Part shown: piece by piece, positions 6,142 through 63,998 of the stretch
How positions within the stretch are numbered: the stretch's first letter is position 1
Layout: every line of letters begins with the position of its first letter
DNA from: an uncultured Gammaproteobacteria bacterium
Lineage (GTDB): Bacteria; Patescibacteriota; Patescibacteriia; Veblenbacterales; UBA10138
Direction: 5' to 3'
NCBI GenBank assembly: GCA_964348825.1
Contig: CAYGDX010000005.1
Span: forward strand, 1 to 63,998
Length of the DNA: 63,998 nucleotides
Program-made: the position numbers and the translations under genes
Notes under the pieces: model-generated
What the model was told of the DNA's origin: nothing
Database searches by the model: none
Seen by the model: the letters and a program-made list of their open reading frames with translations, nothing else

Positions 6142-6152
6142 GGAGTGAACCC

Positions 6153-6344: not shown

Positions 6345-6345
6345 A

Positions 6346-7248: not shown

Positions 7249-7259
7249 GGAGGAAGAAA

Positions 7260-10522: not shown

Positions 10523-10523
10523 G

Positions 10524-33751: not shown

Positions 33752-33768
33752 TTCCCCGAAAGGAAGTG

Positions 33769-46734: not shown

Positions 46735-49700
46735 ATGAGCTTATACGGGCGAACCTTTGACCGTGGAGATGATGACGAAGAACAACAAAATAAGAAACCG
46801 AATGGCGGCAGTAATCTCTATGGGCAAACATTTAATCCTAAATTTGTTGCCAAAGCAAAGGAATCCAAGCCACTTGAAGTAAAATCCTCCAAACCGATTA
46901 TTGCACCGATTCCATCTGCAACTCAATTCCAAATGAGGCCATCGCACGAACCGATAATCGAACCAAAGAAAGCCTCTACATGGGAGCAAATCAAAGCAGG
47001 GGATATTAAGGGATTAGCAAAACAAGTCGGAATTGGATTATCCCAAGGTATATCGAAATTGGGTTCAGCAAAGCAAGATGTTGAATTTGCTAAGATAATG
47101 GCAGACAGCACCCTTCCGCGTATTGCAGAGAGGGGTAAGCAGAAGCGAGGGGAAATACAGGCTAACCAAGATTATCTAAAAGCTAATCCTGTCGATTCCC
47201 TCCCTGCTATGTTGGGCGAGGAACTCACTCGCATACCTTTGTGGATGGCTGGGGAAGGTGCTGTCGGTCTTGCAGGTAAGGGGTTAAGTAAACTCTCCCC
47301 TCGCCTTGGTGCAATTGGCGAGAAGGTCGGAAGTAAAGTTCCAGACTTTATCAAGGGTGGGTTGAAGGATGCTGCGGCTTATGGTTCGGTTGTCGCACCC
47401 ACTCAGAATATTCAAGAGGGAGGTAGTTTCCAAGACCTACTCGAAAAAGAAAAACAATTGCCGATGATTGCTTTAGGTGGAGTGGCGGCTAGGGGAGCGT
47501 TTAAGGGAGTAGGCAAGGGCATAGAGAAGACCAAAAGTGCAATCAAACCATTAGGCGTTCCTCCTGCTCCATTTGGACCACCGCGACCAACTTCATCCGT
47601 TCAACGTAGAAGCGGATTAGGGCCACTTAAAACGAATGACACTATTCCCCTTGAGGATGGATTAGGGTTAGCATCATCCATAAGGAAAGCTAGTATGGAG
47701 GCTAATCCACTTGATGATGTGCGGAATGCTTACAAGGCTCCATCAATCCGCGATGTAAAAACACAGAAGTATAACGAGCTATTTTCGAGTGATGCAAAAC
47801 CGTTAGCCACAGAGCAACGAATAAACATTAGGCAACCATTAGCGAGTCAAGGGATGACGGATGCTGAATTGCTTGCACAAAGAAAATCTGCTGCTCAAGA
47901 TGTTTTTGGCGATCCCTTAAAAACCTTTAAGAAAAACACTGATACCCAAAACACTATTGAAGAATTATCTGCCCAAATGGATAACCAACTTAAAGGCATC
48001 GAAACCATGATTAGGCAAGCTGATGAACAAACTCCAATCGGAACAATCCGTAAAAAGATTAAAGATATGGGCGGGATAAAGCAAGCTGATGACGGCATAT
48101 TCGAAGAGAGAAAAGTCATCCCGAATTGGATACGCAACGATAAGGGCGGTAGACCTTTAGATGAAGTCGCAGACACGTTGGGAATGAACTCAGATGAATT
48201 GCTAGTGGCCATAAGCGATTCGGCATATAAGCCAAGGAACTACGCCGCGGAAGCACAGGCACTTGCGAATAAGGATGCCGAGTATTTAGCGTTGGGTAAT
48301 ACGCTTGAGATGTTGAAGGGTGAGTTATCGGGTAAGAGGACGCTCGACTCATTGAAGAATAAGTCAATCCCCGTTAACGGAAGCCCGCAAACCGAATTAA
48401 TTCCTTATGCTCCAAAGCCGCAAAAACCACTTGCCGATTCATACGATGGATATCAAAAACTGATTGATGATGCAGACGATGTGCTGATTTCTAAGTACGG
48501 TGTGGATGATTGGTTAAAGATGGCCCAAGGCTTAGAAAGCAAAATTACCAAGTCTGAGGTATCTAGTTACAATTCCCTAGTAGATGTAAGAAATAAGATT
48601 TGGGAAGCAGAAAAAGCCGGAAATATTAAAAATGTTTCTGATGGGGTTGATTTTGGTAAATATGATAAAGGTAAAGAATGGGTAGCGGATAAACAAAGCG
48701 TCGACAACGCACTCAAGGAATTACAAGATGATGCTAATTGGTACTCCATCAACAAGGAGGAATACAATCCAACCGTTGAGCAAATAAAGGAGAGTCTATA
48801 CAACAAATTAATTCAGTCAACCGATGCACCGGAACAACTTTGGGGGGAGTATCGCCTAGCTCGTGAATTGGCAAGTGATTTTAATAATTCTCCACTAGGC
48901 AAAAGCACTAAGCCCTTAATGCAACAGATTGATGAAATAGTCGAGTCTATGCTTAACCCACGAGAAGAAGTTAAGTTATTGGGTTCCGTTAAGACCGAAA
49001 ATCCAATAAAGCCTTTAACCAAATCGGATATCAGACTCAAACCAAGAGAACTAAAGGGGCCTCAAAAAATCGAGTCAATACCAACGGAAAGGATTCTTCC
49101 TAAGCAAGAACCTTTGACTTGGACTAATCGGGAAGGGTTAGGTCCTTCGAGTAGTCCTGCTCCTATTCGCCCGATAGCTGAGCAAGGTGGATTGCCGAAT
49201 GGACGAATAGCTAATTCCGTTAGGCAGGAACCGATTAGGCCGATTGAAGCTACTACTGATATCGATATTCCTGTGGTTGGTGGTAGGGCTGATCTGAGTA
49301 ATGTTTTAGAAATACCAAGGACTAGAACGATGAATGCTATGATCGAAAGTCCTAATACTACTTTATCAAGTAGTCCATTGAGAAGTCCCGCTCCTATAAG
49401 GCCACAAATTCCAGCAGAATTGCCAGCTCCACAAAGTGATATTGTTATTGGCAGACCGAAGGAACCATTCAGCTTCAAGAAGGCGTGGGAAAAGTTTTAT
49501 ACCGGAGTAGTTGACACAACTAGCCCTACCGGAAAAGTTGATGAAACATTACGCATGAAAGCCTTGAATACAAAAAATGTCGGGGGTATAGTTGATTACA
49601 ATTTCCTAAAGGGCATGGTTGATAAGAGCGGGAACAAAATTGGAGAATCATTTAAGTCAACTGTGGAGGCAGTACCAAAGGGCAAGGAAAAGGAATTTTG

Positions 49701-51831: not shown

Positions 51832-51834
51832 AAA

Positions 51835-51856
51835 GAGCAGGATTAACTCCCTGCTC
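51835..51856. terminator. Bidirectional terminator hairpin
   Basis: GAGCAGG-N8-CCTGCTC between convergent genes. Confidence 0.6.
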
Positions 51857-52112
51857 ACTCTGCATAATAATTACGTTTCGGTATTGGTAGCCTCCTGTTT
51901 AATTCAGCTATAAGGCATTTGTTTGTGTAGATTATAATCAACGTGAAGATGATTTGAAGAAAAACAGCCGTTATCTCTCCTGGATAAAACCCAAAGTCCA
52001 TCAATATTCCAAAGACTAGATAAATTATGAAGGCAAACCCAATGAACATTATTACCTCTGTAGTTAGAATTACCCGTTCCCAAAACCTTCTTGATTTCTC
52101 AAAGTCAGTCAA
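51855..52112 (-). CDS. Small two-TM membrane protein
   Basis: TTG start 6 nt after GGAGGG. Two hydrophobic helices. Opposite strand to all neighbours. Confidence 0.6.
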   Translation of the reverse strand: MTDFEKSRRFWERVILTTEVIMFIGFAFIIYLVFGILMDFGFYPGEITAVFLQIIFTLIIIYTNKCLIAELNRRLPIPKRNYYAE

Positions 52113-52189
52113 CGAAATCCCTCCAATGTAAATTATTTCATTTTACCTATATTATCAGATATGCTAGACTATTAAAATCGGTGGATATA

Positions 52190-52296
52190 TAAATGTTTGC
52201 TTTGCAAGGCGACATTTACGAAAAAGCATTGCCCAATGCTTCCCCGGTCCGTATCGGGCAACCTATGGGCAGGGTGCATAGCTGGCACTCTAAGAA
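52190..52296 (+). promoter_or_regulatory. Structured leader upstream of the lysis operon
   Basis: Several local hairpins (AAGCATT-GCCC-AATGCTT, CTATG-N9-CATAG) before a terminator and the comEA-like SD. Confidence 0.4.
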
Positions 52297-52326
52297 GAAC
52301 ATCGAGAGATCGGTGTTCTTTTCTTA
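52297..52326 (+). terminator. Intrinsic terminator inside the lysis-operon leader
   Basis: 9-bp stem GAACATCGA / TCGGTGTTC (one G-U pair) followed by TTTTCTT, 25 nt before the start codon. Confidence 0.65.
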
Positions 52327-52350
52327 TTCCCATTTATAAGGGGGTGCACT

Positions 52351-52650
52351 ATGCCAACAGATTTAGAAAGGAAGAAAAACCCTAAAGATACTAAAACTCT
52401 CGTAACCATGCTTTTACTTATTGCAATAGTTTTACTCTCCTTCTTTCTCATGCACAATAGGGATTCTCCTAAGATTAATATCAACACTTCGAGCATTGAA
52501 GCATTGGAATCGTTGCCTAACATTGGCCCTGTTTTAGCGAGAAGGATAGTCCAAAACAGACCATATTCCGATGTCTGGGAATTAGATAAAATTAAGGGTA
52601 TAGGACCCGCTACCATCGAATCAATCAAAAGCAAAGTGATGGCCAAGTAA
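52351..52650 (+). CDS. ComEA-like helix-hairpin-helix DNA-binding membrane protein
   Basis: N-terminal TM, then NINTSSIEALESLPNIGPVLARRIV...LDKIKGIGPATIESIK (ComEA HhH signature). Confidence 0.8.
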   Translation: MPTDLERKKNPKDTKTLVTMLLLIAIVLLSFFLMHNRDSPKININTSSIEALESLPNIGPVLARRIVQNRPYSDVWELDKIKGIGPATIESIKSKVMAK

Positions 52651-52666
52651 TGGGTAGCGTGAAAGG

Positions 52667-53080
52667 ATGGAGAGAATGAAGGAGTTTAGTTTTAATGCCT
52701 TTTTTGCGGTATTAGGAACAACTGCAACAGCGTGTCTAGGGGGATTTGATGCTTCCCTAAAGGTCTTAATTGCCTTTATGGTGCTTGATTATGTAACGGG
52801 CTTTCTAGGGGCTGTCAGAGGCCATAAAGTGAACAGTGAGGTTATGTATTGGGGTGGCGTTAGAAAAGGGGTAATTCTGGCCGTATTAGTGATTTCTGTC
52901 CTTCTTGATGAAATGGTTGGCAATGCTGAACCTATTTTCAGAACACTTACTATTTATTTTTATATATCGAGAGAAGGAATATCGGTTACAGAGAATTTAG
53001 GGGTTTTGGGTGTGCCATTACCGCCTTTTATCTCAAAGGTACTTAGCCAATTAAATGAGAAGGGAGACGAAAACAAATGA
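52667..53080 (+). CDS. Holin (phage_holin_4_1 / TcdE-like family)
   Basis: MVLDYVTGFLGA...GVRKGVILAVLVISVLLDE...YISREGISVTENLGVLGVPLP. Confidence 0.9.
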   Translation: MERMKEFSFNAFFAVLGTTATACLGGFDASLKVLIAFMVLDYVTGFLGAVRGHKVNSEVMYWGGVRKGVILAVLVISVLLDEMVGNAEPIFRTLTIYFYISREGISVTENLGVLGVPLPPFISKVLSQLNEKGDENK

Positions 53081-53781
53081 GGGTGTGCATCGACCCAGGC
53101 CACAATAACACAGGAGCAGATACAGGCTCACAAGGCAATGGGCTAAACGAAGGAGCAGTAACTTTAGCCATTGCTTCAAGATTAAAGCCCTTACTCGAAC
53201 ATAATGGAATCGAAGTCGTAATGACTAGGGAAAGTGATTTCGTTAGTCCCTTTCCTAGATCGGTCATCGAATCCCTTCAAACTCGGGTAAACATTGCCAA
53301 TAATGCTAAAGTAGATTTATTCGTTTCAATTCATATCAACGCCGGTGGTGGAACTGGTGTAGAAGTTCTCATCATGGGTACTGGTGGCAGGGCAGAAATA
53401 GCCGCCAAAAAAGTCCTGCCCCATCTTGTAAAAGCAGGAAGTTGGGTTAATCGTGGAGTCAAAACTCAAAATGCTCACGTTCTCAGAGAAACTACAATGC
53501 CCGCAATCCTCACTGAAAATGGTTTCATCGATTCTGCATCTGATTCAGCTAAACTCAAAGGCTGTGATTTCCTCCAAACTCTAGCTGTAGCTCATGCAAA
53601 AGGAATTTGTGAATACTTTGGTCTGACTTATAAGGGAGAGGCTCAGAAGGTGGTTGTAGCTCCTGTGGTGGAGGATAAGGACATATATCTGTCTGTTAGG
53701 GTGAGAACATCAAAAGCAGATGCACTCGTAAAGCAGATTCAAGGCATGGGATATGCCACAAAGGTAATGGATTTAGCGTAA
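53077..53781 (+). CDS. N-acetylmuramoyl-L-alanine amidase endolysin (Amidase_3)
   Basis: VCIDPGHNNTGADTG...EVVMTRE...FVSIHINAGGGTGVEV. Confidence 0.9.
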   Translation: MRVCIDPGHNNTGADTGSQGNGLNEGAVTLAIASRLKPLLEHNGIEVVMTRESDFVSPFPRSVIESLQTRVNIANNAKVDLFVSIHINAGGGTGVEVLIMGTGGRAEIAAKKVLPHLVKAGSWVNRGVKTQNAHVLRETTMPAILTENGFIDSASDSAKLKGCDFLQTLAVAHAKGICEYFGLTYKGEAQKVVVAPVVEDKDIYLSVRVRTSKADALVKQIQGMGYATKVMDLA

Positions 53782-53797
53782 AGAAAGGAATGATTTT

Positions 53798-53971
53798 ATG
53801 AATATAGGAACTCGTAAGGCAATTGCGTTATCTATGGCTGGTGCATATATTTTATTCACTGCCTATGGAATGGTAATGGGTAAAGCTGTACCAGTTGAGT
53901 TTGTTGGAATTGTCGGGCCAATCATTGGCTATTACTTTGGGAAAAGTACAGCCCTTGAGCAACCTAAATAA
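53798..53971 (+). CDS. Small two-TM membrane protein (57 aa)
   Basis: Hand translated; GAAAGGAA SD; follows the endolysin. Confidence 0.5.
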   Translation: MNIGTRKAIALSMAGAYILFTAYGMVMGKAVPVEFVGIVGPIIGYYFGKSTALEQPK

Positions 53972-53981
53972 GTTTTCTCCT

Positions 53982-54015
53982 GCCCTCTGCCTTAATTGGT
54001 AGAGGGCTCCTTTTC
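53982..54015. terminator. Bidirectional terminator
   Basis: GCCCTCT-N12-AGAGGGC followed by TCCTTTT. Confidence 0.65.
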
Positions 54016-54245
54016 TATTTCACCCTAACAAACTGCCCAAGCACTCCCAAAGAAACAGCATCCCCACTCTTAAACACCGTCATAAAATACAAATCACTAA
54101 CACTTCCATTCTGAACATAAGCAGAATAATCGGATGGCTTTACATTCGTGTTAGCCATTATCACTAATACTAATGCTAATATCGCAAGAACCTTCTGCAT
54201 TTTAGTTAAAGTTACTGCTTTGAAATCTGAGATTATTTCGTCCAT
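54015..54245 (-). CDS. Small membrane or secreted protein
   Basis: 76 aa, central TM VLAILALVLVIMA, AAAGGAGG SD. Confidence 0.55.
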   Translation of the reverse strand: MDEIISDFKAVTLTKMQKVLAILALVLVIMANTNVKPSDYSAYVQNGSVSDLYFMTVFKSGDAVSLGVLGQFVRVK

Positions 54246-54314
54246 GTGATGGCCTCCTTTTGAGATATTAGGTTTATTATGTCCATATTCGTCAGGATTA
54301 GTCGTTATTTCTCG

Positions 54315-54352
54315 TGGACAAACTTACGTTAAAAGGTGTACAATTAACGTAA
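54315..54352 (+). promoter_or_regulatory. Promoter with inverted-repeat operator
   Basis: TGGACA, 18-nt spacer, TACAAT. Perfect 9-bp inverted repeat TTACGTTAA-N11-TTAACGTAA brackets the -10. Confidence 0.5.
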
Positions 54353-54371
54353 CACAAAAGGAGGTGTATTA

Positions 54372-54500
54372 GTGAAGAGGCTTGACTTGAGGGTTACTGA
54401 ACCACAGCATAAATGGTTAGAAAAAATGGCTGAGAAATTAGGTATTGGTAAGTCGGAATTTGTTCGTAGGATTTTGGATAAGGAGATGAAAAAGAAGTGA
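54372..54500 (+). CDS. Ribbon-helix-helix protein, MobC/CopG-like (42 aa)
   Basis: Hand-translated MKRLDLRVTEPQHKWLEKMAEKLGIGKSEFVRRILDKE; AAAGGAGG SD. Confidence 0.6.
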   Translation: MKRLDLRVTEPQHKWLEKMAEKLGIGKSEFVRRILDKEMKKK

Positions 54501-55327
54501 ATCCAATCTATGACTTACTTAGAGCAGATGGAAGTATTGTAATAAATAAGAATTTAATTATTTCTATCGGCCTAAATGAGTCTATTATGTTTTGCGAGTT
54601 ACTATCACGTTACTATTACTTTTTAGAAAGGAAACAACTACAGGATGACGGAAGTTTCTTTAATACAATCTTTGACTTATCTCTTGCAACAGGTTTAGCG
54701 GATAAGGCACAAAGGACAGCAATTACCAATCTTAAAAAACTAGGACTGCTTAGTGTAGATGTTAAGGGAATACCTGCTAAAAGATACTTCAAAGTTTGTG
54801 GTAGTCAAGAATTAATCGAGAGTTATCTTCGTAGTGGAGTTGAGAAAAAACAAAAATTGATTGATGAACATCGTGAAAACCCTTTAAATTCAACAGTTTT
54901 GCCAAAAGCAGAGACTTGCCATGCCCTACAGCCATTACTTGCTATTGCTGATGGGGGCCGTAATAATACAACCTATAATACTAATCCAATAATACAAAAT
55001 AATGATAATGGTACGAAGTCTGACGACATTCGTACGTCACTTTCTAAACCCTATACGGAAGGGGTTACTTATGTAGTAGATTATTATTTCAAGGCATATC
55101 GTCAATGTTTCGGAACAAGTCATGCAAGGTTAAAGGGCAAGCAAACAAAGACAGTTATGAGAAATATTAGCGACTTTATGGAAGAAAATATGTTAGATGA
55201 AGGAAACCTTGAAGCTATGATTGATAGGCACTTTGAGAGAAATCATCTCAATACTGATTACAATATCAACCACTTTGCCACAGAGGGAATATTAGCTAAT
55301 CTGATATTTGAGTCAGGGTTACATTAG
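54497..55327 (+). CDS. Second replication initiator-like protein (DnaD / RepA_N-like winged helix)
   Basis: N-terminal ...IMFCELLSRYYYFLERKQLQDDGSFFNTIFDL...TAITNLKKLGLL pattern. N/T-rich linker encoded by AT-rich repeats. Confidence 0.55.
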   Translation: MNPIYDLLRADGSIVINKNLIISIGLNESIMFCELLSRYYYFLERKQLQDDGSFFNTIFDLSLATGLADKAQRTAITNLKKLGLLSVDVKGIPAKRYFKVCGSQELIESYLRSGVEKKQKLIDEHRENPLNSTVLPKAETCHALQPLLAIADGGRNNTTYNTNPIIQNNDNGTKSDDIRTSLSKPYTEGVTYVVDYYFKAYRQCFGTSHARLKGKQTKTVMRNISDFMEENMLDEGNLEAMIDRHFERNHLNTDYNINHFATEGILANLIFESGLH

Positions 55328-55343
55328 AAGGAGAGGAATTATT

Positions 55344-55709
55344 TTGAGGGAAATTAAGTTTAGGGCATGGGATAGGGCGACAAAATTAATGTTTGTAATA
55401 TTCGATAACGAGGGAGAAAATTGGTTTCTCCCTAAATGGAAAAGCAATTACGAGGTAATGGAATTCACGGGACTTCTTGACGAAGAAGGTAAAGAAATTT
55501 ACGAAGGTGATCTTGCTGAAAATGACGGAAGGATATACCAAGTTGTATGGATGCCTAATCACGCAAAATGGGGCGTAAAGGTTATTAAGACAACCCATGT
55601 ATTATCAAAAAATATGACCTTTCCAATTTGGCAATACGTACACGAAGGAACAAGCACAACAAATTTCAAGGTAATCGGCAATATCCACGAAACGCAGGAG
55701 GCCAACTAA
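55344..55709 (+). CDS. YopX family protein
   Basis: IKFRAWD...EFTGLLDEEGKEIYEGD...VIGNIHE. Confidence 0.8.
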   Translation: MREIKFRAWDRATKLMFVIFDNEGENWFLPKWKSNYEVMEFTGLLDEEGKEIYEGDLAENDGRIYQVVWMPNHAKWGVKVIKTTHVLSKNMTFPIWQYVHEGTSTTNFKVIGNIHETQEAN

Positions 55710-55873
55710 TGTCCGACAACAAAGAGAAATCAAACAAGCCACAAATTAAGGTTTATCTCAGAGATGAAGATGAGGTAAAAATATTCAAGGAGCAGGCTGA
55801 GAAGAAAGGTTATTCAGCTAGTGCATGGCTAAGGGGATTGGGTATTAAGGATATTGGGAAGAAGGGGAAGTAA
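55709..55873 (+). CDS. MobC-type ribbon-helix-helix protein
   Basis: IKVYLRDEDEVKIFKEQAEKKGYSASAWLRGLGI fits the relaxosome accessory RHH pattern. Confidence 0.5.
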   Translation: MSDNKEKSNKPQIKVYLRDEDEVKIFKEQAEKKGYSASAWLRGLGIKDIGKKGK

Positions 55874-55876
55874 GAG

Positions 55877-56296
55877 ATGGGAATAACAATAAGCTCAAAA
55901 AGGCATAGTTGCGACATGGGGTATGGCGGTTTTGGTAGGTTTAGAAACGTGGTAGCCGAAAAGGTGAGTAAAAAATTCAGTGAGCATTATGTAAGCATGG
56001 ATAAGCCAGAGGTTATGTTTTTGTCTGGAAGTAGTAGGGATGATTTTTTCAAAAAGTATGATGCAACTACAGAGGAACTCATAGAGCAAAAAGAAGTAAC
56101 GGAAGAAGTGGCTAATTTCTTGTACCAAACAGATTGCAACGGCAAGATAGACAGAAAACAAGCCAAGGAAATATACTCGCTAATTAAAGAATGTGATGAC
56201 AATATTAGTTTTGGTTATTCTGGTAGAAAAGATTGTGCCAAAATGTCAGATTTGAAGAGTATTTTTTCTGACGGTACAAAGGTTGAATGGCGTTGA
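55877..56296 (+). CDS. Hypothetical protein
   Basis: 139-aa ORF, coupled. Confidence 0.5.
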   Translation: MGITISSKRHSCDMGYGGFGRFRNVVAEKVSKKFSEHYVSMDKPEVMFLSGSSRDDFFKKYDATTEELIEQKEVTEEVANFLYQTDCNGKIDRKQAKEIYSLIKECDDNISFGYSGRKDCAKMSDLKSIFSDGTKVEWR

Positions 56297-56366
56297 ATTT
56301 TCTCCGCTAGTGCATCATCCAGAAGTGGGCCTTAAAGCAGTTGAAGAGGGGGAGGGAGTAAGAGGG

Positions 56367-56522
56367 ATGATTTGTAAAAATAGTAAACTTAAAAAGATTA
56401 GATATTGTGAACATGGAACGGTGACTATTACAGTTTGCCTATTAACTGGAAAGGAGTGCCATTCTCACGGATTCGAGGAACAATGCACAGTGGAAAGCAA
56501 AGCTGTTAAAGAAATATTGTAG
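56367..56522 (+). CDS. Small Cys-rich protein
   Basis: ATG after GGGGGAGGGAG; 51 aa. Confidence 0.4.
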   Translation: MICKNSKLKKIRYCEHGTVTITVCLLTGKECHSHGFEEQCTVESKAVKEIL

Positions 56523-56535
56523 GGGGGGATGAAGG

Positions 56536-56913
56536 ATGGATAATTGCCGATTAAGACCGTATCCAGCAGGACTGAAGGATTCCGATATCTACGGTTACGC
56601 TTTAGTTGATGAAAATGGGCATTATGTCGCAAGTAAATACTTACTAGTCAAAAAGGGTAGTGAGGTCGTCGCTACAAGATCAAAAAAATATATAACCGAT
56701 GGTTTTTATTATTTCTCCACTCAGGATAAAGCAGAGGAGGAATTAAGGGAACTCAATGCCATGAACGAAAAGTACCAATTAAATAAAGAGTTTAGTATTA
56801 AGAAATTTAACAAGAAAGAAAATTCTATGATGGAATCAAAAGAATGTGAGTCTGATAATTTCTATGAGCGAAAAGCTTTCTTTAGGAATTCAGAAATAAT
56901 TACGCCGTTATAA
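56536..56913 (+). CDS. Hypothetical protein
   Basis: 125-aa ORF after GGGGGGGATGAAGG. Confidence 0.5.
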   Translation: MDNCRLRPYPAGLKDSDIYGYALVDENGHYVASKYLLVKKGSEVVATRSKKYITDGFYYFSTQDKAEEELRELNAMNEKYQLNKEFSIKKFNKKENSMMESKECESDNFYERKAFFRNSEIITPL

Positions 56914-56918
56914 ATAAG

Positions 56919-56955
56919 TAAAGCCCAACTCACAAGAGAAGGGCTTTTATTTTTA
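56919..56955. terminator. Bidirectional terminator between convergent operons
   Basis: AAGCCC-N14-GGGCTT followed by TTATTTTT. Confidence 0.6.
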
Positions 56956-57050
56956 TATTAGCATATATGGATAGTGTGCTTTTTCTCAACTCTCCCTTTC
57001 CCGTTCCTTATCCCTTGCACACCCTCAACCTCTCGCCCTCTCTTTGTTTT

Positions 57051-57713
57051 TCATATCAACAACGGCAATAACTTAAAGGCCATCAACGCCATCCCTGCCA
57101 ACGTCAACGTATTCCCGAACAAAACTACAGCTTGAGTCGTATCATCAGATGTTGGAATCTCTGCTGGAACAGGCGGTCTATCTGGCAGCTCATTCTTATC
57201 CGTGAGATTATTCTTGATGACCTCCAAGTATTTCTCAAAGTTGTCATTGTCCCTAAAGTGTTCGCCTATCTCGATTCTGACCTTTTCCTTGATGGAGTCT
57301 GAGGTTATTTCTCGTTCATAGGTGACAGAATCCCTCGGTACATATTTCCCCGTTCCTCCGCTACTTATTTTCTTGCCGATTCGTGCTGTGATATATTTGC
57401 CAAGGTTATTTCCCAAGAACATAGCTTGACTAATTCCATATCCCTCGGGCAATCCGATCACTATCTGCTTATCAATCATCTTGCTCCACATGGCAAGGTT
57501 ATATGCTCCAAGTTCAGGATTACTTTCTGACCAAAATAGGGAGGTCTGAGAGGGGTTGTTGGATGGATAGGGGTAGAGATAGTATAACGAACTCTCGTTG
57601 GCTTGAGAGAGGTTTGGGAAGCTGAGGGAGAGTCCAACCATGATTAGTAGGATGGATAGGGCTAGGCTTCTTTTGATTGAGGATTTACGTAGGACTATGA
57701 ACATTTCGATCAC
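57051..57713 (-). CDS. Secreted protein with C-terminal membrane anchor
   Basis: N-terminal signal/TM LALSILLIMVGLSLSF and C-terminal TM AVVLFGNTLTLAGMALMAFKLLPLLI. Confidence 0.6.
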   Translation of the reverse strand: MIEMFIVLRKSSIKRSLALSILLIMVGLSLSFPNLSQANESSLYYLYPYPSNNPSQTSLFWSESNPELGAYNLAMWSKMIDKQIVIGLPEGYGISQAMFLGNNLGKYITARIGKKISSGGTGKYVPRDSVTYEREITSDSIKEKVRIEIGEHFRDNDNFEKYLEVIKNNLTDKNELPDRPPVPAEIPTSDDTTQAVVLFGNTLTLAGMALMAFKLLPLLI

Positions 57714-58444
57714 TCCTTCATTAATGGTCGTGGGTCAATCGCTTTTCCACCAACTCTAATTTCCATATGCAAATGTGGGCCTTTAGAATTCCCTGCTCCT
57801 TGCGTACCTTTCGTTCCTCCACTTAAACCAACTTGAATAGAATTACCCCACAGTCTATCTCCCTTCTTAACTGCAACCTTTGACAGATGAGCATAGAGTG
57901 TTTGCCATCCAGTACCATGTTCGACTAAAACGTAGTTTCCATAAACCTCATGCAATCCGACAACGGCAACCTTTCCTTCGCGTGATGCCTTGACGATAGT
58001 TCCCTCTTTGCAATCAATATCAATTCCATGATGCTCCGTTCCCTTGAACTCTTGAGTGATGGTTCCCGATAGTGGATAGTTGAAGCGTATTGTTGATGGC
58101 CTGAGTTTTTCGTATAAGGAAATGCCCGGGGGGTATTTACTCGCACCAACTCCAGCGAAGGGAATATTCTCCTTTTCCTCAGTCCATGAAGTAACTGCGT
58201 CAACAACTCCTACGGCCTTCTCTACACCGTTCTTTGTCTCAGTATAGGCAATGCTAAGGTCGTGAACATCATCGGCAACACGGGTTAAGTATGGGCCTAC
58301 AGTACCAACTATAGTCAAGGCTACTCCTGCCCAAAAAAGATACTTAACAATATGCTTTGAACTTGGTAGGGCAATTTCGACAAATACTCTGACTAATACA
58401 TAGAGGGCAGATAATCGGATTAAATCGGTAATCATTTGGGCCAC
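57710..58444 (-). CDS. Membrane-anchored M23 (LytM) peptidoglycan peptidase
   Basis: Two N-terminal TMs. Catalytic HHGID (HxxxD) and HLH (HxH) motifs. Confidence 0.85.
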   Translation of the reverse strand: MAQMITDLIRLSALYVLVRVFVEIALPSSKHIVKYLFWAGVALTIVGTVGPYLTRVADDVHDLSIAYTETKNGVEKAVGVVDAVTSWTEEKENIPFAGVGASKYPPGISLYEKLRPSTIRFNYPLSGTITQEFKGTEHHGIDIDCKEGTIVKASREGKVAVVGLHEVYGNYVLVEHGTGWQTLYAHLSKVAVKKGDRLWGNSIQVGLSGGTKGTQGAGNSKGPHLHMEIRVGGKAIDPRPLMKE

Positions 58445-58656
58445 ACGCCTTTACTGACTGATTCGGCAACTCCCATGAATCCACTTAATGAACTTAGTAC
58501 CATTACGGCTAATGAAGCAATTGCAAATATGTTGAGATATATTCTATAGCGTCCATAACCGAAAATATCTAATCCAATCCCAAATACAAACAATGCGGCC
58601 GCCACTTTAAGGACAAGGTACATATTTTGAATTGCAATTTCAGCCGGACTTGCCAT
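58432..58656 (-). CDS. Small two-TM membrane protein
   Basis: 74 aa, hydrophobic, overlapping both neighbours. Confidence 0.55.
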   Translation of the reverse strand: MASPAEIAIQNMYLVLKVAAALFVFGIGLDIFGYGRYRIYLNIFAIASLAVMVLSSLSGFMGVAESVSKGVWPK

Positions 58657-59356
58657 TGTGCGTCAACTCCTTCTGTCGATATTCCTCCCTCTTTTTAAGT
58701 GCAATTCTCCAGCAAAGTTCTCTGAGCTTATCGAGTTGATAGAATTCTAATCTGACGTTTTTCATGTTTGATAGTTCTTTGAGTAGTTGCTCCTTGATGT
58801 TGTCATAGGGGCCGGTAGTGACTACGGTTAATGATAGATATTGATCTTGAGCGAAGGTTTCAAATAATGCTCGATAGTTTTTGTTCCAACGATTTGATGA
58901 TTCATTTACTTGGAATTCACCAAAACAGTAAATGCTACCGTAAACTTTGTGGTCAATGACTCCATAGCAATCAGAGATGGGAAGGGTTTTGTTTTTCTCA
59001 TAAAATCTCCTTTCCTCTGATTTGAAATAGGTTAGCGTTTGATTGCCTTGAGAATCAAGTGCTTTTAAGTTCCATGCTGTATAAATCCATGATTTGCCTA
59101 GCCTGTGCTGAATTTGGTCTGGACGTTTTGAGTCGTAATCATGGAACCAATCGGGCATATCGGACCATTTCATTTCAACTCGTTTGATGAGCTTATCTTC
59201 GACTAAACGCTTAGTGCATCGGTGAGACATTTCGGTTGAGACATTCCAAAACTCAAGTAAATGTATTTGCTCCTGCGACAAGACGCTGCAAGCTTCGAGA
59301 TGGGCTAGAACTCGTTGATCTCGCTTCCTTCCTCGGGCGTGGGTAGAAGGGTTCAT
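58640..59356 (-). CDS. Replication-relaxation family protein (putative relaxase-like)
   Basis: RDQRVLAHLEACSVLSQEQIHLLEF...RCTKRLVEDKLIKRVE winged-helix start typical of the family. GAGG SD. Overlaps the ftsK-like 3' end by 104 nt. Confidence 0.6.
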   Translation of the reverse strand: MNPSTHARGRKRDQRVLAHLEACSVLSQEQIHLLEFWNVSTEMSHRCTKRLVEDKLIKRVEMKWSDMPDWFHDYDSKRPDQIQHRLGKSWIYTAWNLKALDSQGNQTLTYFKSEERRFYEKNKTLPISDCYGVIDHKVYGSIYCFGEFQVNESSNRWNKNYRALFETFAQDQYLSLTVVTTGPYDNIKEQLLKELSNMKNVRLEFYQLDKLRELCWRIALKKREEYRQKELTHNGKSG

Positions 59357-60611
59357 GTTCGTATACCTCGCCTTCTATGTCGTGGTAGGGGAGTGGGGTT
59401 TTTGGGAGTTGGGACATAAGCTGATGGAATTGTTCGGGCTGTTTATTCTCGGTAGGGAAATAGGGTGTCTGAACTTCTTCCTCTGTATCGTATTTGTAGA
59501 TTGCTCTACCTGGTGTCTTGGGAATATTCGCAGCCTTATCGCTCTCTAATATCATTTGGCTGTTAATTCTATCGGACATTCGGAAAGCTAAACGTGCTTC
59601 GAATTGGCTTTTGAACTCAGTAAATAGTTTTCCGTTTCCCCAGGCTTTTGCGGAAGGTCGTTGGGTAGCTGCTATAACATAGATTCCTTGCGAACGATAT
59701 TTCTTGACTGACCTCAGAAGCAATTCAGCACAATATTTATCTTCGCCAACCATGTCGCATTCGTCCACAAGTAGCACACAATAGGGCATATGATTTCCCT
59801 TGATGGAATTGTACTCAAGAATATCCCTGCACCGTCCTAGCTTGTTTTTACGCTCCTTGTCTGATTTGTCGATAAGGTATAGGAGTTGAGTGTAATCCCA
59901 TTCTTCATGGACGAATGTGGCTCCGTAATCCTCGAAGTATTCAAATTCCTTATTCTTTGGTCCGATAATAGCTGTCTGAACATAATCTCTTTTGGTGAGT
60001 TTATTTAGAAGTAAAAGGGTGTAAATAATTTGGTGCATTGCTGTAGATTTGCCTTTACCTCTAAGGCCTACTATTAATAACGAGTAGATAACTGCCAAGT
60101 CTTGCACGATAGGACCGTTTGCACCGTGACCAATAAGGATGGGGAGCTTCATTGTTTTCAGATAAGGCGTTGGGTCAAATGCGTAGGTGTAGGATTTTTC
60201 TAGGGCAATGTTTGAGATGGTCATGTAGGTGGCTCCACCGTTATGTTCAATTTCGCAAGAACCACCAACCGCAGTAGCGAAGAAATGCTCTTTTCCCTTA
60301 AAGTCCTCATACGAGATTCCCGGTGGTAAGTGAATAACCAAATGCCAAGTCTGCTTTAGTTTTGGTCTGACTTTTAGCCAATAGATAATTTCTTGGGGAG
60401 TTAGTTTTTTTGGGATGATAGGCTTTAGGCTTTGCTTTTCTTTTGGGGAGAGTAGAGTTTTTTTGTGTATGAACGGTTTGAGTGGAGCTTTAGCATAGAG
60501 GATTTCAATAGAATCATAGACAGCAGATGGAATTTCGGAATCCGGGCCACGATAGATAGCTCTCATAAAACCATCTTTTAGTTGGTCAACGAAATCATTA
60601 TGCTTTTTCAT
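59253..60611 (-). CDS. FtsK/SpoIIIE-family DNA translocase / coupling ATPase (no TM segment)
   Basis: Walker A GLRGKGKST, Walker B VLLVDECDM, IAATQRPS motif. Confidence 0.85.
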   Translation of the reverse strand: MKKHNDFVDQLKDGFMRAIYRGPDSEIPSAVYDSIEILYAKAPLKPFIHKKTLLSPKEKQSLKPIIPKKLTPQEIIYWLKVRPKLKQTWHLVIHLPPGISYEDFKGKEHFFATAVGGSCEIEHNGGATYMTISNIALEKSYTYAFDPTPYLKTMKLPILIGHGANGPIVQDLAVIYSLLIVGLRGKGKSTAMHQIIYTLLLLNKLTKRDYVQTAIIGPKNKEFEYFEDYGATFVHEEWDYTQLLYLIDKSDKERKNKLGRCRDILEYNSIKGNHMPYCVLLVDECDMVGEDKYCAELLLRSVKKYRSQGIYVIAATQRPSAKAWGNGKLFTEFKSQFEARLAFRMSDRINSQMILESDKAANIPKTPGRAIYKYDTEEEVQTPYFPTENKQPEQFHQLMSQLPKTPLPYHDIEGEVYEHEPFYPRPRKEARSTSSSPSRSLQRLVAGANTFT

Positions 60612-60741
60612 TGTTCATCTCTCTAAAAAGATCGACTGACATTAAGGCAACAATAATTTCCTCATCATACTTAGCTGTGATGCCATAGTCTTTGATAGCC
60701 TTACGGATTAGTTTTTGGATCTTGGTTATGTCGATTGTCAT
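60598..60741 (-). CDS. Small hypothetical protein (47 aa), first gene of the minus operon
   Basis: Hand-translated MTIDITKIQKLIRKAIKDYGITAKYDEEIIVALMSVDLFREMNNEKA; overlaps the ftsK-like start. Confidence 0.45.
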   Translation of the reverse strand: MTIDITKIQKLIRKAIKDYGITAKYDEEIIVALMSVDLFREMNNEKA

Positions 60742-60865
60742 CTTTCATTTCCCCTTCCAACGTTCTTATCAACGTTTACGTCGATGATAAAGAGTATTCA
60801 AACGAAATGCGTTAATGCTAGGTAATTAATGGAATGAATAAACGAACCCCGTTAGTGGCAGGATA

Positions 60866-60900
60866 ATAAAAATACCTCGACCATTACGGCTGAGGTATTT
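60866..60900 (-). terminator. Intrinsic terminator after the small 35-aa gene
   Basis: AATACCTC-N13-GAGGTATT with T-run on the minus strand; the stop codon lies in the loop. Confidence 0.55.
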
Positions 60901-60991
60901 GGGAGAGAATCAGATTGACTAGAAAGTCGGATAATTGTTGTAATTCTTGGTAATCGTCCTCATTTGGAAGAATTCTGACGATTTCTATCAT
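60884..60991 (-). CDS. 35-aa protein, paralog of 63869..63979
   Basis: Hand-translated MIEIVRILPNEDDYQELQQLSDFLVNLILSQIPQP; AAAGGAGGG SD and own terminator. Confidence 0.5.
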   Translation of the reverse strand: MIEIVRILPNEDDYQELQQLSDFLVNLILSQIPQP

Positions 60992-61008
60992 CTCTTTCCC
61001 TCCTTTGA

Positions 61009-61017
61009 TGGTATAAT
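61009..61017 (+). promoter_or_regulatory. Extended -10 element upstream of the serine recombinase
   Basis: TGgTATAAT. Confidence 0.4.
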
Positions 61018-61070
61018 TTATGCACCAACAAAGTTGTCCTAAAACAAAAAGGGGGAAATATATTTTGAAG

Positions 61071-62690
61071 ATGGATGCTTTTTATGGACGTAACTCTACG
61101 GATGAACAAGCCGAGAAGGGAACGATTGACGCACAGATTGATTATGCTAAAAAATACTTTAATTTAAACGACATTACCGATTACGAAATGTATCTTGATG
61201 AAGCAACGTCTGGAACGATTGCACTAAGCAACAGGGAAAATGCCTCTAAGATGCTAGAGGATGCGAAACGTGGGAAGATTAAGACTGTTTATGTTTATCG
61301 CTTGGATAGATTAGCAAGAAGTGTGAAGCATGTTTTAGATACCTATGAATTCTTAGAATCCTATAATGTACGTCTTGTTAGCATGACCGAAGCCTTTGAC
61401 ACTGGCACACCTACGGGTAAGTTCTTTATGACTCTTCTAGCGAGTATAGCAGCACTTGAGAGAGACACAATCTTAGAGAGGACACAAATGGGCAAGGATC
61501 GTAACGCAAGGGCTGGAAAGTGGGTTTCTGGAGCTTCGCCGTTTGGTTATCGCATAGGGGATGACGGAAAGCTCGTTATTTATGATCCAGAAGCGGAAAC
61601 GGTGAGGCTCATATTTAAGCTTTACTCTGAGGGAATGACCATGTTTGAGTTGGCAAAATATCTTAATGCTAAGGGAGTGGAAACCCCTGCAACATCTAAG
61701 AAAACAAAGGGAGTAAGCACAGGGAAATGGCACGCAGGACACATTTCTATTGTTCTCAAAACAGAAGCATATACAGGAATTTACGGATATCTTCAACGTT
61801 CAAAACGCAATAGAGATATTATCGAGGTCGACGTTCCGATGCTTATTGATGTAGAAACTTTTAACGAAATACAAAAGAAAATTCTTATCAATGCTGATAG
61901 TGCAAGAGGAAAGAGGGGGAGACTGTACTTGCTTCGTGGAGTTATATATTGCGGTCATTGCGGAAGGGCTATGATAGGTAATGCAGCAGGAACCAATCGC
62001 TCCTATTATCGCTGTACGGCTACAAATGATCAGGGGCAGGGTAAAACTTGCACAGCTAAACAAATAAAGGCTACAAGCATAGAGAATGCCGTGTGGGACG
62101 ATATATTGGAGATAGTAAGGTATCCGGAACAATTCAGGGAGTATGTAGAAAGATCGATTGCCAATACTAAAAAGGTAATGGAACCTATATACGATGAATT
62201 ATCGGAAGTGGAGGAATCGATTACTAAAAAGCAAAAGGCGAAAGAAAGAATTCTCTCATTAATTAACAGGGATATGGTTTCCGATAAGGATGCAGAAAAG
62301 GAACTCAAATCTATTTCCTTGGAGCTAAGGTCGCTGACTTCACGCAAGGAGCATTTATTTGAGCAACAGGAAAAATCAAAGTCGATTGAAACGGAAACGA
62401 TAAACTCACAAGTTGTATTTGACTACATTCTTAATCAATCGGAGATTCTTGATCCGGTGGTAAAGTCTCGAATTGTCCGTGGTCTTGTTAAGAAGATAGA
62501 AGTATTCACCATTGAGCAAGAAGACGACAAAAGGGGAAATAGAGCCGTTATATCTTATCGCTTAGGTCGTAGTTTGGAGTTAAGTCTTTTAAGAGATACT
62601 AGAACACAAACTACACTTCCAAATATAGAAAGCACCTGGGAGTTCCAGGCGTTTTCTAGACATGGAGGGCATAGAATCAGATGGCGGTAG
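61071..62690 (+). CDS. Large serine recombinase
   Basis: FYGRNSTDEQ catalytic Ser region, resolvase domain, recombinase domain, zinc ribbon CGHCG...YYRC, coiled-coil. Confidence 0.9.
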   Translation: MDAFYGRNSTDEQAEKGTIDAQIDYAKKYFNLNDITDYEMYLDEATSGTIALSNRENASKMLEDAKRGKIKTVYVYRLDRLARSVKHVLDTYEFLESYNVRLVSMTEAFDTGTPTGKFFMTLLASIAALERDTILERTQMGKDRNARAGKWVSGASPFGYRIGDDGKLVIYDPEAETVRLIFKLYSEGMTMFELAKYLNAKGVETPATSKKTKGVSTGKWHAGHISIVLKTEAYTGIYGYLQRSKRNRDIIEVDVPMLIDVETFNEIQKKILINADSARGKRGRLYLLRGVIYCGHCGRAMIGNAAGTNRSYYRCTATNDQGQGKTCTAKQIKATSIENAVWDDILEIVRYPEQFREYVERSIANTKKVMEPIYDELSEVEESITKKQKAKERILSLINRDMVSDKDAEKELKSISLELRSLTSRKEHLFEQQEKSKSIETETINSQVVFDYILNQSEILDPVVKSRIVRGLVKKIEVFTIEQEDDKRGNRAVISYRLGRSLELSLLRDTRTQTTLPNIESTWEFQAFSRHGGHRIRWR

Positions 62691-62985
62691 GACTCATTAG
62701 CCGACATACCCTACCTACGTTTTGGGAAGCAAACTTATTGGCCTTGACTTCCGTTTCTGTTTGTTGCATATCTATTCCTATTCCGCATGTACCGTGATCG
62801 TGTGCTAGGTGATATGTTTCGTGAGCTATTGTTTCTGCCGTGCATTCCTTGGATAGAGAATCGTCAATAAAAACATGGGATACATTTTTCCGAGAAACAT
62901 AGACGAAGCCTTTAACTTCTCCACCCAGTGGGACTAAGTGAAATTTAACTCCGTCTAAGTCGGATGAATGAAAATCCTGTCCCAT
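62677..62985 (-). CDS. ImmA/IrrE-family metallopeptidase
   Basis: AHETYHLAHDHG (HExxH). Downstream of the XRE repressor. 14-nt convergent overlap with the recombinase. Confidence 0.8.
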   Translation of the reverse strand: MGQDFHSSDLDGVKFHLVPLGGEVKGFVYVSRKNVSHVFIDDSLSKECTAETIAHETYHLAHDHGTCGIGIDMQQTETEVKANKFASQNVGRVCRLMSPTAI

Positions 62986-63039
62986 ACTGTCGCCTCCTAG
63001 TTGAAATTGGAGTAATTTGTATTAACCCATAGAGACACA

Positions 63040-63066
63040 AAATCCCAGGGCGTCATTGCCCTGGGT
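63040..63066 (-). terminator. Hairpin/terminator between repressor and ImmA
   Basis: CCCAGGGC-N6-GCCCTGGG perfect 8-bp stem, ATTTTGTG after it on the minus strand. Confidence 0.6.
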
Positions 63067-63070
63067 TTAG

Positions 63071-63469
63071 TTATTCACCTGCCTCTTCGTCCTCCACTAT
63101 TTTAATGTATCTTATTATACGTTTAATAGTTTCTTTTTTGAGGGGTCTTACTTGTTTGAATAATAATTTCAATTCATCCCTCTTTGATAAATCTTTAAAA
63201 AAGGAGAGTAATTCCTCATCGCCCTCCAATGCAAGGGCTATTTTTTTTATTGGAGAATCATTATTATCCTTTCCGTGGAGAATGTAATCGGTAGATACTT
63301 CGAGCAGATTGGACAGTTTGGGTAATTCCTCTGAATCGACAGGAGTATAACCTCGTTCCCAATTTGAAAGGACTTGGCGAGATACACCGATTTTGTCAGC
63401 AAGTTCTTGTTGCTTGAAACCACGGCGATCACGTAAGTCACGTATTCGATTTCCGACTGCATTAATCAT
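63071..63469 (-). CDS. CI-like XRE-family repressor
   Basis: IRDLRDRRGFKQQELADKIGVSRQVLSNWERG HTH plus C-terminal oligomerisation region. Confidence 0.85.
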   Translation of the reverse strand: MINAVGNRIRDLRDRRGFKQQELADKIGVSRQVLSNWERGYTPVDSEELPKLSNLLEVSTDYILHGKDNNDSPIKKIALALEGDEELLSFFKDLSKRDELKLLFKQVRPLKKETIKRIIRYIKIVEDEEAGE

Positions 63470-63523
63470 ATGAGAATTCCTCCAATCTAAATTATAGCAT
63501 AACCAATTTATATATTAAATAAT

Positions 63524-63579
63524 TGTACGGAATATGATTGTTTTTTGAAATAAGCCATTGACATGTACGGATTATGATT
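63524..63579. promoter_or_regulatory. Two 16-nt operator-like direct repeats in the switch region
   Basis: TGTACGGAATATGATT (63524-63539) and TGTACGGATTATGATT (63564-63579). Confidence 0.55.
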
Positions 63580-63586
63580 ATAAAAT
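63558..63586 (+). promoter_or_regulatory. Early rightward promoter (PR-like)
   Basis: TTGACA, 17-nt spacer, TAAAAT. The spacer is the second operator repeat. Confidence 0.6.
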
Positions 63587-63635
63587 AAGAACGTACCCAA
63601 GTAATATATTCCAAAAATAGAAAAGAGGTGAAAAG

Positions 63636-63881
63636 GTGATTAGGGACAATGTAAGGGACATAAGGGAAGCTAAAGGGATTACTGGAAGTCATGTTGCAGA
63701 AAAAATAGGCTTTACCCCGCAGGGATATCGTCATATTGAAAAGGGTAATTCTCGACTACAGGCCGAAACACTTAAGTCTATTGCTGTAGTATTAGAGGAA
63801 CCAGTATCAGTTTTTTTTGATCGAGAACAAACGGAATCCGTACTACAGAGGATTGGCGGTGAGGTCAAATGTACGAAATAG
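63636..63881 (+). CDS. Cro-like XRE-family regulator
   Basis: IREAKGITGSHVAEKIGFTPQGYRHIEKG HTH; GTG after AAGAGGTG. Confidence 0.8.
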   Translation: MIRDNVRDIREAKGITGSHVAEKIGFTPQGYRHIEKGNSRLQAETLKSIAVVLEEPVSVFFDREQTESVLQRIGGEVKCTK

Positions 63882-63979
63882 ATGCATCTGACCACAAAGA
63901 ACTACAAGATTTAGCGGATTATCTTGTTGATTTGGTCAGAATTACTACAGCGAGACACATTCAAAAGGAAAGCGCATGA
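63869..63979 (+). CDS. 36-aa protein, paralog of 60884..60991; crosses the circular junction
   Basis: Hand-translated MYEIDASDHKELQDLADYLVDLVRITTARHIQKESA. Confidence 0.45.
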   Translation: MYEIDASDHKELQDLADYLVDLVRITTARHIQKESA

Positions 63980-63998
63980 GAATTTTTCACATAAAAAA
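63944..63998. repeat. Terminal direct repeat, copy 2
   Basis: Identical to bases 1-55. Confidence 0.95.

Follow-up and report, generated by a model that had tools for sequence, protein, structure and literature searches.

An enlarged and divergent FtsK/Replic_Relax-like operon with M23 peptidase and surface protein genes in a temperate phage genome

Results

A six-gene minus-strand operon

The DNA analysed here is the 63,998-nt contig CAYGDX010000005.1 (this whole stretch is referred to as the window), and the element under study is a minus-strand operon at 57051-60741, which encodes a soluble FtsK/SpoIIIE-type ATPase, a divergent protein resembling the Replic_Relax/MOB_C relaxases (here called RR), a small membrane protein, an M23 metallopeptidase and an envelope protein. 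The operon consists of six open reading frames (ORFs), located where a first-pass annotation of the window had placed them, and successive ORFs overlap, read from the low-coordinate end, by 4, 13, 17, 104 and 14 nt. The pairwise overlap of all six implies co-translation and a complex.

The ATPase (59253-60611, minus strand; 452 aa) matches PF01580 (E=1.1e-7) and phrog_1358, 'FtsK/SpoIIIE-like' (E=8e-39), which PHROGs assigns to the category 'moron'. The motifs that had been read from the sequence beforehand were confirmed: Walker A GKGKST at residue 185, Walker B VLLVDECD at residue 279 and TQRPS at residue 316. Against the PDB, the protein matched the FtsK motor (E=1.5e-11) and TcpA of pCW3 (6o1w-z, E=3e-8). 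Its N-terminal domain of about 150 aa is common to Bacillus-phage FtsK-like proteins, and the ATPase aligns near full length, this domain included, with the proteins of BtCS33, PK2, 268TH007 and PfEFR-4. The 3' end of its gene shares 104 nt with the RR ORF in a different reading frame, and most related loci retain a shared stretch of about 100 nt.

Three genes for predicted membrane or envelope proteins follow RR. A 74-aa protein (58432-58656, minus strand) has two transmembrane (TM) segments by hydropathy and a position that is conserved in related loci, and is a candidate membrane anchor. The M23 metallopeptidase (57710-58444, minus strand; 244 aa; PF01551, E=1.7e-24) is kept in all related loci; its active site is intact by motif (HHGID at 138, H186, HLH at 224), and two N-terminal hydrophobic segments predict that it is membrane-anchored. 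The last gene (57051-57713, minus strand) encodes a 220-aa envelope protein of no known family that begins with a signal or anchor and has a TM segment at its C-terminus; its AlphaFold2 (AF2) model was poor (predicted local distance difference test, pLDDT, 57) and unfit for a structure search. The membrane-anchored, active peptidase and the signal-peptide protein with a C-terminal anchor in the first-pass annotation are thereby supported, the former as a prediction from domain, motif and hydropathy, the latter by hydrophobic segments at both ends. That annotation had also counted two small TM proteins in the operon, and here the 74-aa protein stands but the other does not. The 47-aa product of the first ORF (60598-60741, minus strand), which runs 14 nt into the FtsK start, is soluble, without a TM segment and without a family match; the ORF in this position looks ribbon-helix-helix (RHH)-like by eye in three related loci (L007, L008 and L027). 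A 76-aa single-TM ORF (54015-54245, minus strand), with a homologue in L007, lies after the lysis cassette, with the plus-strand genes between it and the operon, and is probably a separate transcription unit, not an operon member.

A direct repeat, ACGTTG-N6-ACGTTG (60758-60775, minus strand), is flanked by a -10-like TATCAT on one side and, on the other, by the ribosome-binding site that precedes the first operon ORF. The window contains a single instance, against 0.00 expected from shuffles, and 10 related loci each have one at the equivalent upstream site; the repeat looks like a candidate operator or binding site for an RHH or winged helix-turn-helix (wHTH) protein. Also in this region, just upstream of the operon promoter and followed by a hairpin, is a micro-ORF (60884-60991, minus strand) with a paralogue directly after cro (63869-63979, plus strand). 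The two products, of 35 and 36 aa, have the motif ELQ-L-D-(F/Y)-LV-(N/D)-L in common and may be small regulators.

RR is a distant relative of Replic_Relax proteins

RR (58640-59356, minus strand; 238 aa) combines an N-terminal wHTH-like region with a putative PD-(D/E)xK-like core. PF13814 (Replic_Relax) represents the MOB_C relaxase superfamily (PMC5357655; PMC12857230), whose members resemble restriction endonucleases, show no covalent DNA intermediate and, in the case of TraX of pAD1, carry a wHTH at the N-terminus (PMC12857230). Scans of RR with NCBIfam and PADLOC gave zero matches, pairwise BLASTP against the Replic_Relax proteins of PK2 and BtCS33 was not significant, and a sequence profile search of the PDB returned weak spurious matches only. 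The relationship emerged through the family: a profile of RR and its relatives (A1, 18 members) run against 1.84 billion representatives found 42 proteins, and when distant profile matches were scanned, PF13814 was present in 20 out of 20 and above the gathering score in 19. The remoter RR homologues of L027 and L028 matched PF13814 with E=1e-4 and 2e-4, under the gathering score.

In the family alignment D129 and E147 are invariant and Q149 is near-invariant, and the resulting pattern D...F-x-E-F-Q-V resembles the PD...E-V-Q of the PK2 protein. The AF2 model is confident over residues 77-234, the C-terminal domain. The top Foldseek matches of RR in the PDB were all PD-(D/E)xK nucleases (Can2, Mus81, PspGI, NucS, HamA), the best at a non-significant E of 0.03, while the best viral matches in BFVD included proteins of Bacillus phage JL (E=1.5e-4) and phage G (E=4.4e-3). 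Alignment places the first 35 residues, coded within the 104-nt overlap, at the wHTH start of Replic_Relax relatives, and the long RR start is therefore the real one. From these comparisons we conclude that RR is a very divergent Replic_Relax homologue, whose membership is transitive through intermediates. The overlapping replication-relaxation-type protein of the first-pass annotation is upheld to this extent, that is, for the overlap and for indirect homology to PF13814 but not for any direct family hit.

The operon is contiguous with a complete phage genome

Window positions 1-55 are identical to 63944-63998, leaving a unique length of 63,943 bp. These identical 55-nt ends close the sequence on itself, and the window represents an entire phage genome, circular or circularly permuted, of 63,943 bp (about 63.9 kb). 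Logan contig ERR3094292_58713 (42.8 kb, from a separate assembly collection) is 100% identical to window 49253-63998 and onward into 1-6668, and an ENA contig is 100% identical over 56819-60954; the independence of these two contigs from the window is one of assembly. Since the second assembly spans both junctions of the block formed by the operon and its neighbours (54246-62690) at 100% identity, the block is contiguous and not a chimeric join.

The genome is that of a temperate tailed phage. It encodes TerL (30995-32851), a portal (33736-35910), a major capsid protein (38681-39682) and a tail protein of 1698 aa, followed by holin (52667-53080) and amidase (53077-53781). After the block come the large serine recombinase, an ImmA-like protease, cI and cro, within 61.0-63.9 kb, and the early region resumes at the window start with the phage's own replication genes, Phage_rep_O (13621-14469) and a single-stranded DNA-binding protein. 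The block thus occupies the usual accessory slot, from lysis to integrase, and its GC content and skews do not differ from those found elsewhere in the genome.

Megablast of the block against GenBank phages gave zero matches, and hence there is no close cultured relative there. A scan of GTDB species genomes for the host matched a single Bacillota metagenome-assembled genome (MAG); homologues of the enlarged operon come from metagenomes or this one MAG only, with no cultured host among them. The host is probably an uncultured spore-forming member of the Bacillota, not Bacillus. A phage gene at 4747-5169 (plus strand) encodes a protein consisting of the C-terminal, DNA-binding domain of Spo0A (Spo0A_C), a feature that implies a host able to form endospores and suggests that the phage may manipulate sporulation.

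The operon is conserved while its surroundings vary

The order FtsK, RR, TM protein, M23 peptidase, surface protein is kept in 17 non-redundant loci (L007, L008, L010/L025, L014-L024, L027, L028 and L042; L025 is the same contig as L010 and was counted once). One more locus, L041, retains FtsK, RR, TM and M23 and is missing a comparable downstream protein, which brings the loci with at least four genes to 18. Identity to the window across loci is 32-80% for the FtsK-like ATPase, 31-79% for RR, 32-63% for M23 and 29-60% for the fast-evolving surface protein, and the operon order holds down to 32-38% FtsK identity. Integrases around the operon are of serine or tyrosine type, in phage genomes of about 45-68 kb; L007 and L008 carry tyrosine integrases in place of the serine recombinase, with the same operon. 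Conservation of the five-gene core while integrases differ argues that the operon belongs to the phage lineage and is not an inserted mobilizable element. Phages with tail or lysis genes in common but without the operon also exist (L033, L036); the relatives retrieved via the tail protein are mosaic, with only tail or lysis genes common, and offered no clean presence/absence pair with sharp junctions.

Two further settings of the operon were recorded. In L027 (3541-15400; JGI 3300036987) it forms part of an island of about 12 kb beside tRNA-Thr; the contig is chromosomal, 194 kb long, and has gas-vesicle and lipid-synthesis genes on the flanks of the island. The island encodes RHH, FtsK, RR, TM, M23 and surface proteins together with Spo0E-like, Bro-N and fused HTH-M78 proteins, and neither phage structural genes nor a recognisable integrase nor flanking repeats were found in it. 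The operon is likewise present on a 183-kb contig with a tRNA array.

Two variations in the immediate neighbourhood were observed. In L042 (5550-11156; Logan SRR34139749, a 45-kb contig) the operon has a divergent ParA gene and a small tyrosine recombinase as its flanking genes but no large integrase, a context that suggests a phage-plasmid lifestyle. In L007 (7445-8335) and L008 (7553-8196) a divergent pair of small cI/Cro-like genes (HTH_3) precedes it, together with a first ORF that is RHH-like; such a private HTH_3 pair would make the operon a module with its own regulatory switch in some relatives.

Counterparts in Bacillus phages and plasmids

A tblastn search with the ATPase identified relatives in 202 phage records, of which 180 are Bacillus phages. 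In BtCS33, 268TH007 and PfEFR-4 a small ORF, a soluble FtsK of about 388 aa and an overlapping gene of about 205 aa lie between the lysis cassette and integrase/cI; PK2 carries the same trio with uninformative flanks, and 268TH004, a natural sibling of the B. subtilis phage 268TH007, lacks the cassette. The FtsK partner is PF13814-positive in PK2 (E=4e-13) and BtCS33 (E=6e-11), annotated as replication-relaxation in 268TH007 and as hypothetical in PfEFR-4. The trio was also found on a 15-kb Sutcliffiella plasmid with no annotated Rep, and the small ORF upstream of FtsK encodes two TM segments in PK2, 268TH007 and this plasmid and one above threshold in BtCS33 and PfEFR-4. FtsK relatives were further detected by tblastn in 518 plasmid records, most of them typed non-mobilizable, with Bacillus, Priestia, Clostridium and other spore formers as the source of nearly all.

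In 2012 Pathria et al. described a phage 'DNA translocation operon' that combines a coupling ATPase and membrane anchors with a family of relaxases akin to CloDF13 MobC, in 0305phi8-36 (orf200-207) and in partial form in SPO1 (gp27.3/27.4), GBSV1, BV1 and the Gamma/Wbeta group, and the module is present in strictly lytic Bacillus phages (PMC3357382). The FtsK/Replic_Relax pair has been noted as a 2.5-kb indel between two B. subtilis phages (PMC9476937), is reported to adjoin a parABS system and a repA-like gene of the phage-plasmid RBClin15 (PMC11526630), and has been speculatively linked to sporulation (PMC3359378, PMC4113786). The view that such a gene set would be unusual for a tailed phage is therefore not borne out, given the 202 phage records and an operon published in 2012 (PMC3357382).

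Neighbouring genes and other features of the window

Convergent with the operon is a plus-strand gene set at 54372-56913. Its first gene encodes an RHH protein (54372-54500; RHH_1 E=2.6e-4; NikA-like E=6.9e-5, under cut-off), followed by a replication-initiator-like protein of 276 aa (54497-55327; phage replication-initiator PHROGs, E=8.7e-9), YopX (55308/55344-55709; PF09643, E=2e-13), a second RHH protein (55709-55873; NikA-like E=0.028, under cut-off) and ORFs without family assignment (55877-56296 and 56536-56913). Both RHH proteins had been called MobC-type; they are RHH-type, but no MobC-type match was obtained. The proposed DnaD/RepA_N-like initiator is likewise retained as an initiator by PHROGs, but neither the DnaD nor the RepA_N model of Pfam matched, and pairwise comparison showed it to resemble neither BtCS33 ORF24 nor the Rep_O of the phage itself. 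Related phages carry only subsets of the RHH, initiator-like and YopX genes, and the plus-strand set is a convergent, variable accessory one. In addition to Phage_rep_O, and in some relatives only, the RHH gene is coupled by a 4-nt overlap to the initiator-like gene (54372-55327); this pair may be a second, plasmid-style replicon cassette.

On the other side of the operon, and divergent from it, lies the gene for the large serine recombinase (61020-62690, plus strand) with Resolvase, Recombinase and Zn_ribbon_recom domains. This recombinase serves as the integrase of the phage and has no fixed link to the operon. The calls of YopX, the large serine recombinase and TerL in the first-pass annotation were all confirmed.

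Further away, window 6331-11267 (plus strand) encodes a Gad2-like (anti-Gabija) protein, an SbcC-like ATPase (7260-9257), a RecT-like annealase (9527-10522) and a metallo-beta-lactamase-fold protein with a faint match to Apyc1 (anti-Pycsar), and is probably a recombination and counter-defence region. Besides the serine recombinase, the phage carries a tyrosine recombinase (23070-23957, minus strand) within 22.5-26.8 kb.

Discussion

A possible DNA-translocation machine at the cell envelope

The operon is this lineage's own enlarged and divergent version of the phage 'DNA translocation operon' and is native to the phage; we tentatively read it as encoding a DNA-translocation machine anchored in membrane and wall, a reading that Pathria et al. 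also reached for 0305phi8-36, SPO1, Gamma and GBSV1 (PMC3357382). In such a machine, RR would recognise and perhaps nick a site on the phage DNA through its wHTH-like and PD-(D/E)xK-like domains and would pass the DNA to the soluble, hexameric FtsK-like pump. The 74-aa 2-TM protein would tether the pump to the membrane, the M23 peptidase would locally open the peptidoglycan, and the anchored 220-aa surface protein would act at the outer face. The apparatus might then move a copy of the phage genome, without a virion, across a membrane or septal barrier, either between touching cells (by self-transfer or helper mobilisation) or between mother cell and forespore (spore entrapment). Translocation is supported by the overlaps of all six ORFs, by the gene order kept in 17 loci with differing integrases (one of them with ParA beside the operon), by the homology of RR to PF13814 members and of the ATPase to FtsK and TcpA, by the trio in Bacillus phages and the small plasmid, by the conserved repeat upstream of the operon and by the presence of the operon in the non-phage island of about 12 kb. 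For passage from cell to cell speak the kinship of relaxase, coupling protein and RHH proteins, the gene order like that of integrative mobilizable elements (IMEs), the hydrolase and the surface protein; delivery to the forespore, or segregation, would fit the near-confinement of relatives to elements of endospore formers, the Spo0A_C of the phage, the Spo0E-like gene of the island and the occurrence of the module in lytic Bacillus phages. More generally, the linkage of the pair to a tether, a hydrolase and a surface protein across deep divergence, in phage and non-phage settings, argues that the module works at the cell envelope and not in the cytoplasm only.

Several observations weigh against a translocation machine. 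An integrated prophage needs no pump to reach the spore. RR itself stays below the Pfam threshold, with no PF13814 hit at E<=0.1 (Pfam/CONJscan) and a single family member at E=0.14, and its motif reads E-x-Q instead of E-x-K, while the ATPase is without a TM or hydrophobic segment and without the FtsK gamma domain. VirB4-, VirB6- and VirB8-type proteins were not found among the ORFs scanned for a type IV secretion system (T4SS) at 54.0-62.7 kb (16 ORFs with Pfam and subsets with PHROGs and NCBIfam; a 79-aa ORF with Pfam only), and the largest membrane proteins of these ORFs have two TM segments. Repeat, tandem-repeat, promoter and terminator scans of the block revealed no origin of transfer (oriT), clt or iteron-like array, and no flanking or bounding repeats were found around it; the sole conserved repeat is two-copy and placed like a transcriptional operator. 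These negative results for VirB-type proteins and for oriT or clt arrays, and the TM-free ATPase, also count against conjugation in the strict sense. Spo0A boxes are not enriched in the window (7 found, 7.3 expected). Deletion of the operon of 0305phi8-36 had no laboratory phenotype (PMC3357382), and the FtsK gene of Fah was reported to belong to the delayed class in lytic infection (PMC4113786), as would suit a function during the infection cycle.

Alternative explanations

A phage/IME chimera was one of the proposals of the first-pass annotation. That an IME or conjugative element with serine recombinase, Rep, RHH proteins, coupling protein and relaxase was recently inserted, or mis-assembled, into a phage is highly improbable. 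The gene content is indeed IME-like, in that the coupling gene precedes that of the relaxase and adjoins a serine integrase (PMC5357655), there is a second initiator-like gene besides the early Phage_rep_O, and the same operon occurs in a small non-phage island. Yet the 55-nt overlap closes the sequence, the second contig is 100% identical across 49253-63998 into 1-6668, GC and skew are uniform, flanking repeats were not found around the block, and an equivalent module is native to many Bacillus phages. The operon has the same place in 18 non-redundant loci, 17 of them with the full five-gene core, while integrase type and plus-strand genes vary. Nor is the block a discrete element bounded by attachment (att) sites and provided with a dedicated integrase, as would define an IME. 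What remains of the mobilization-type backbone is real homology, to PF13814, to TcpA/FtsK, and in the RHH, hydrolase and envelope proteins, but VirB4/VirB6, oriT and a clt array were not found in the scans of the block. The first-pass annotation had also allowed for the proteins being ordinary phage families found at this position with no link to mobilization; this holds for position and family but not for the absence of such a link.

A role restricted to the phage's own cell we consider unlikely: pump and site-specific RR could resolve or partition phage circles at the division or sporulation septum, perhaps together with the RHH-initiator cassette nearby in the window, with no intercellular transfer. 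Such episome maintenance would agree with the repA-like gene and parABS system beside the RBClin15 pair (PMC11526630), with ParA directly beside the operon in L042, and with the trio on the 15-kb plasmid lacking an annotated Rep and the 518, mostly non-mobilizable, plasmid records. The phage nevertheless has an integrase and a full early replication module, the initiator-like gene is missing from many operon-bearing phages, and a wall hydrolase and a surface-exposed protein are ill-suited to a purely cytoplasmic role. Improbable, too, is prophage defence or superinfection exclusion, in which an FtsK/HerA-type ATPase and a PD-(D/E)xK nuclease would hit incoming DNA and the envelope proteins would block adsorption or injection. 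The operon does occupy a classic moron/defence slot between lysis genes and integrase in the same orientation as cI, its ATPase has the PHROGs category 'moron', other defence and anti-defence genes are present in the genome, and the ATPase-nuclease pair resembles HerA-nuclease systems (the PK2 ATPase is annotated DUF87/HerA-like). PADLOC, however, gave only generic FtsK-domain matches (SspH, mad8) and zero for the remaining five, RR has its homologues among relaxases and not among known defence nucleases, and the module is found in strictly lytic Bacillus phages (PMC3357382).

The translocation reading has a stronger form, which we hold to be quite unlikely: the operon could be a self-sufficient, T4SS-independent DNA-transfer apparatus in which a MOB_C-like nuclease would load the pump and, with the 2-TM tether, the M23 peptidase and the surface protein, allow virion-free passage between Bacillota cells or into the forespore. 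If true, this would be a new minimal route of horizontal spread common to phages, plasmids and small islands of spore formers. Published functions for FtsK and Replic_Relax pairs are guesses (conjugation-like spread, sporulation control, segregation, prophage induction), and the linkage seen in the enlarged operon narrows these hypotheses for the tractable Bacillus phages. Should the module move phage DNA virion-free or into spores, the boundary between phages and conjugative elements would be blurred, with a bearing on phage persistence in spore formers.

Comparison with known systems

The MOB_C relaxases (TraX of pAD1, MobC of CloDF13; PF13814) and RR are alike in an N-terminal wHTH-like region and, as predicted for RR, a PD-(D/E)xK core, with homology via intermediates; RR differs in its D...E-x-Q motif and the lack of a direct Pfam hit, and an oriT with five direct repeats was not found in the block. 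The partner of RR is an FtsK-type ATPase, whereas the MOB_C relaxases of streptococcal IMEs pair with a VirD4-type coupling protein (PMC5357655). TcpA-type coupling proteins of Firmicutes integrative conjugative elements, IMEs and pCW3 have the FtsK-like motor in common with the phage ATPase, and the position of the coupling gene upstream of the relaxase gene is IME-like (PMC5357655). The N-terminal TM anchor of TcpA is absent from the phage ATPase, however, and no FA-type T4SS is associated with it here. TcpA pairs with MOB_T/rolling-circle replication (RCR)-type or TcpM relaxases, whereas the partner here is MOB_C-like.

Actinomycete TraB/Spd conjugation offers another parallel, a single FtsK-like pump with small membrane proteins and without a VirB4-type T4SS. 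The match of the phage ATPase to NF041214 TraB nevertheless scores only 29.9 bits where the cut-off is 800, the block yielded no array of clt-like 8-bp repeats, and the phage system adds a nuclease/relaxase-like partner and an M23 hydrolase in a unicellular Bacillota host. With SpoIIIE and SpoIIQ the operon has in common an FtsK-family pump, a membrane-anchored M23 (LytM) protein and endospore-forming hosts. The phage pump differs in being without a membrane domain, and the SpoIIQ match of the peptidase is domain-level (49.9 bits against a cut-off of 250), with the M23 active site intact.

The closest likeness is to the Bacillus 'DNA translocation operon', represented by 0305phi8-36, SPO1, Gamma/Wbeta/Cherry/Fah, GBSV1, BtCS33, PK2 and 268TH007, with which the operon described here has in common a soluble FtsK-type ATPase, an adjacent Replic_Relax/MOB_C-like protein, a small membrane protein and, in temperate phages, the position between lysis genes and integrase/cI. 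The ATPases align near full length at 22-28% identity only, and RR is too divergent for the Pfam threshold. The FtsK/RR overlap is about 100 nt here and 4-20 nt in the Bacillus modules, and the 2-TM protein is encoded downstream of FtsK here but just upstream of it there. The operon belongs with the phage FtsK and Replic_Relax operons by its phrog_1358 ATPase, the overlapping RR gene, the small membrane protein and the lysis-lysogeny location, and this module is already known; new is its enlarged, very divergent form, in which an M23 peptidase and an anchored surface protein have been added and conserved.

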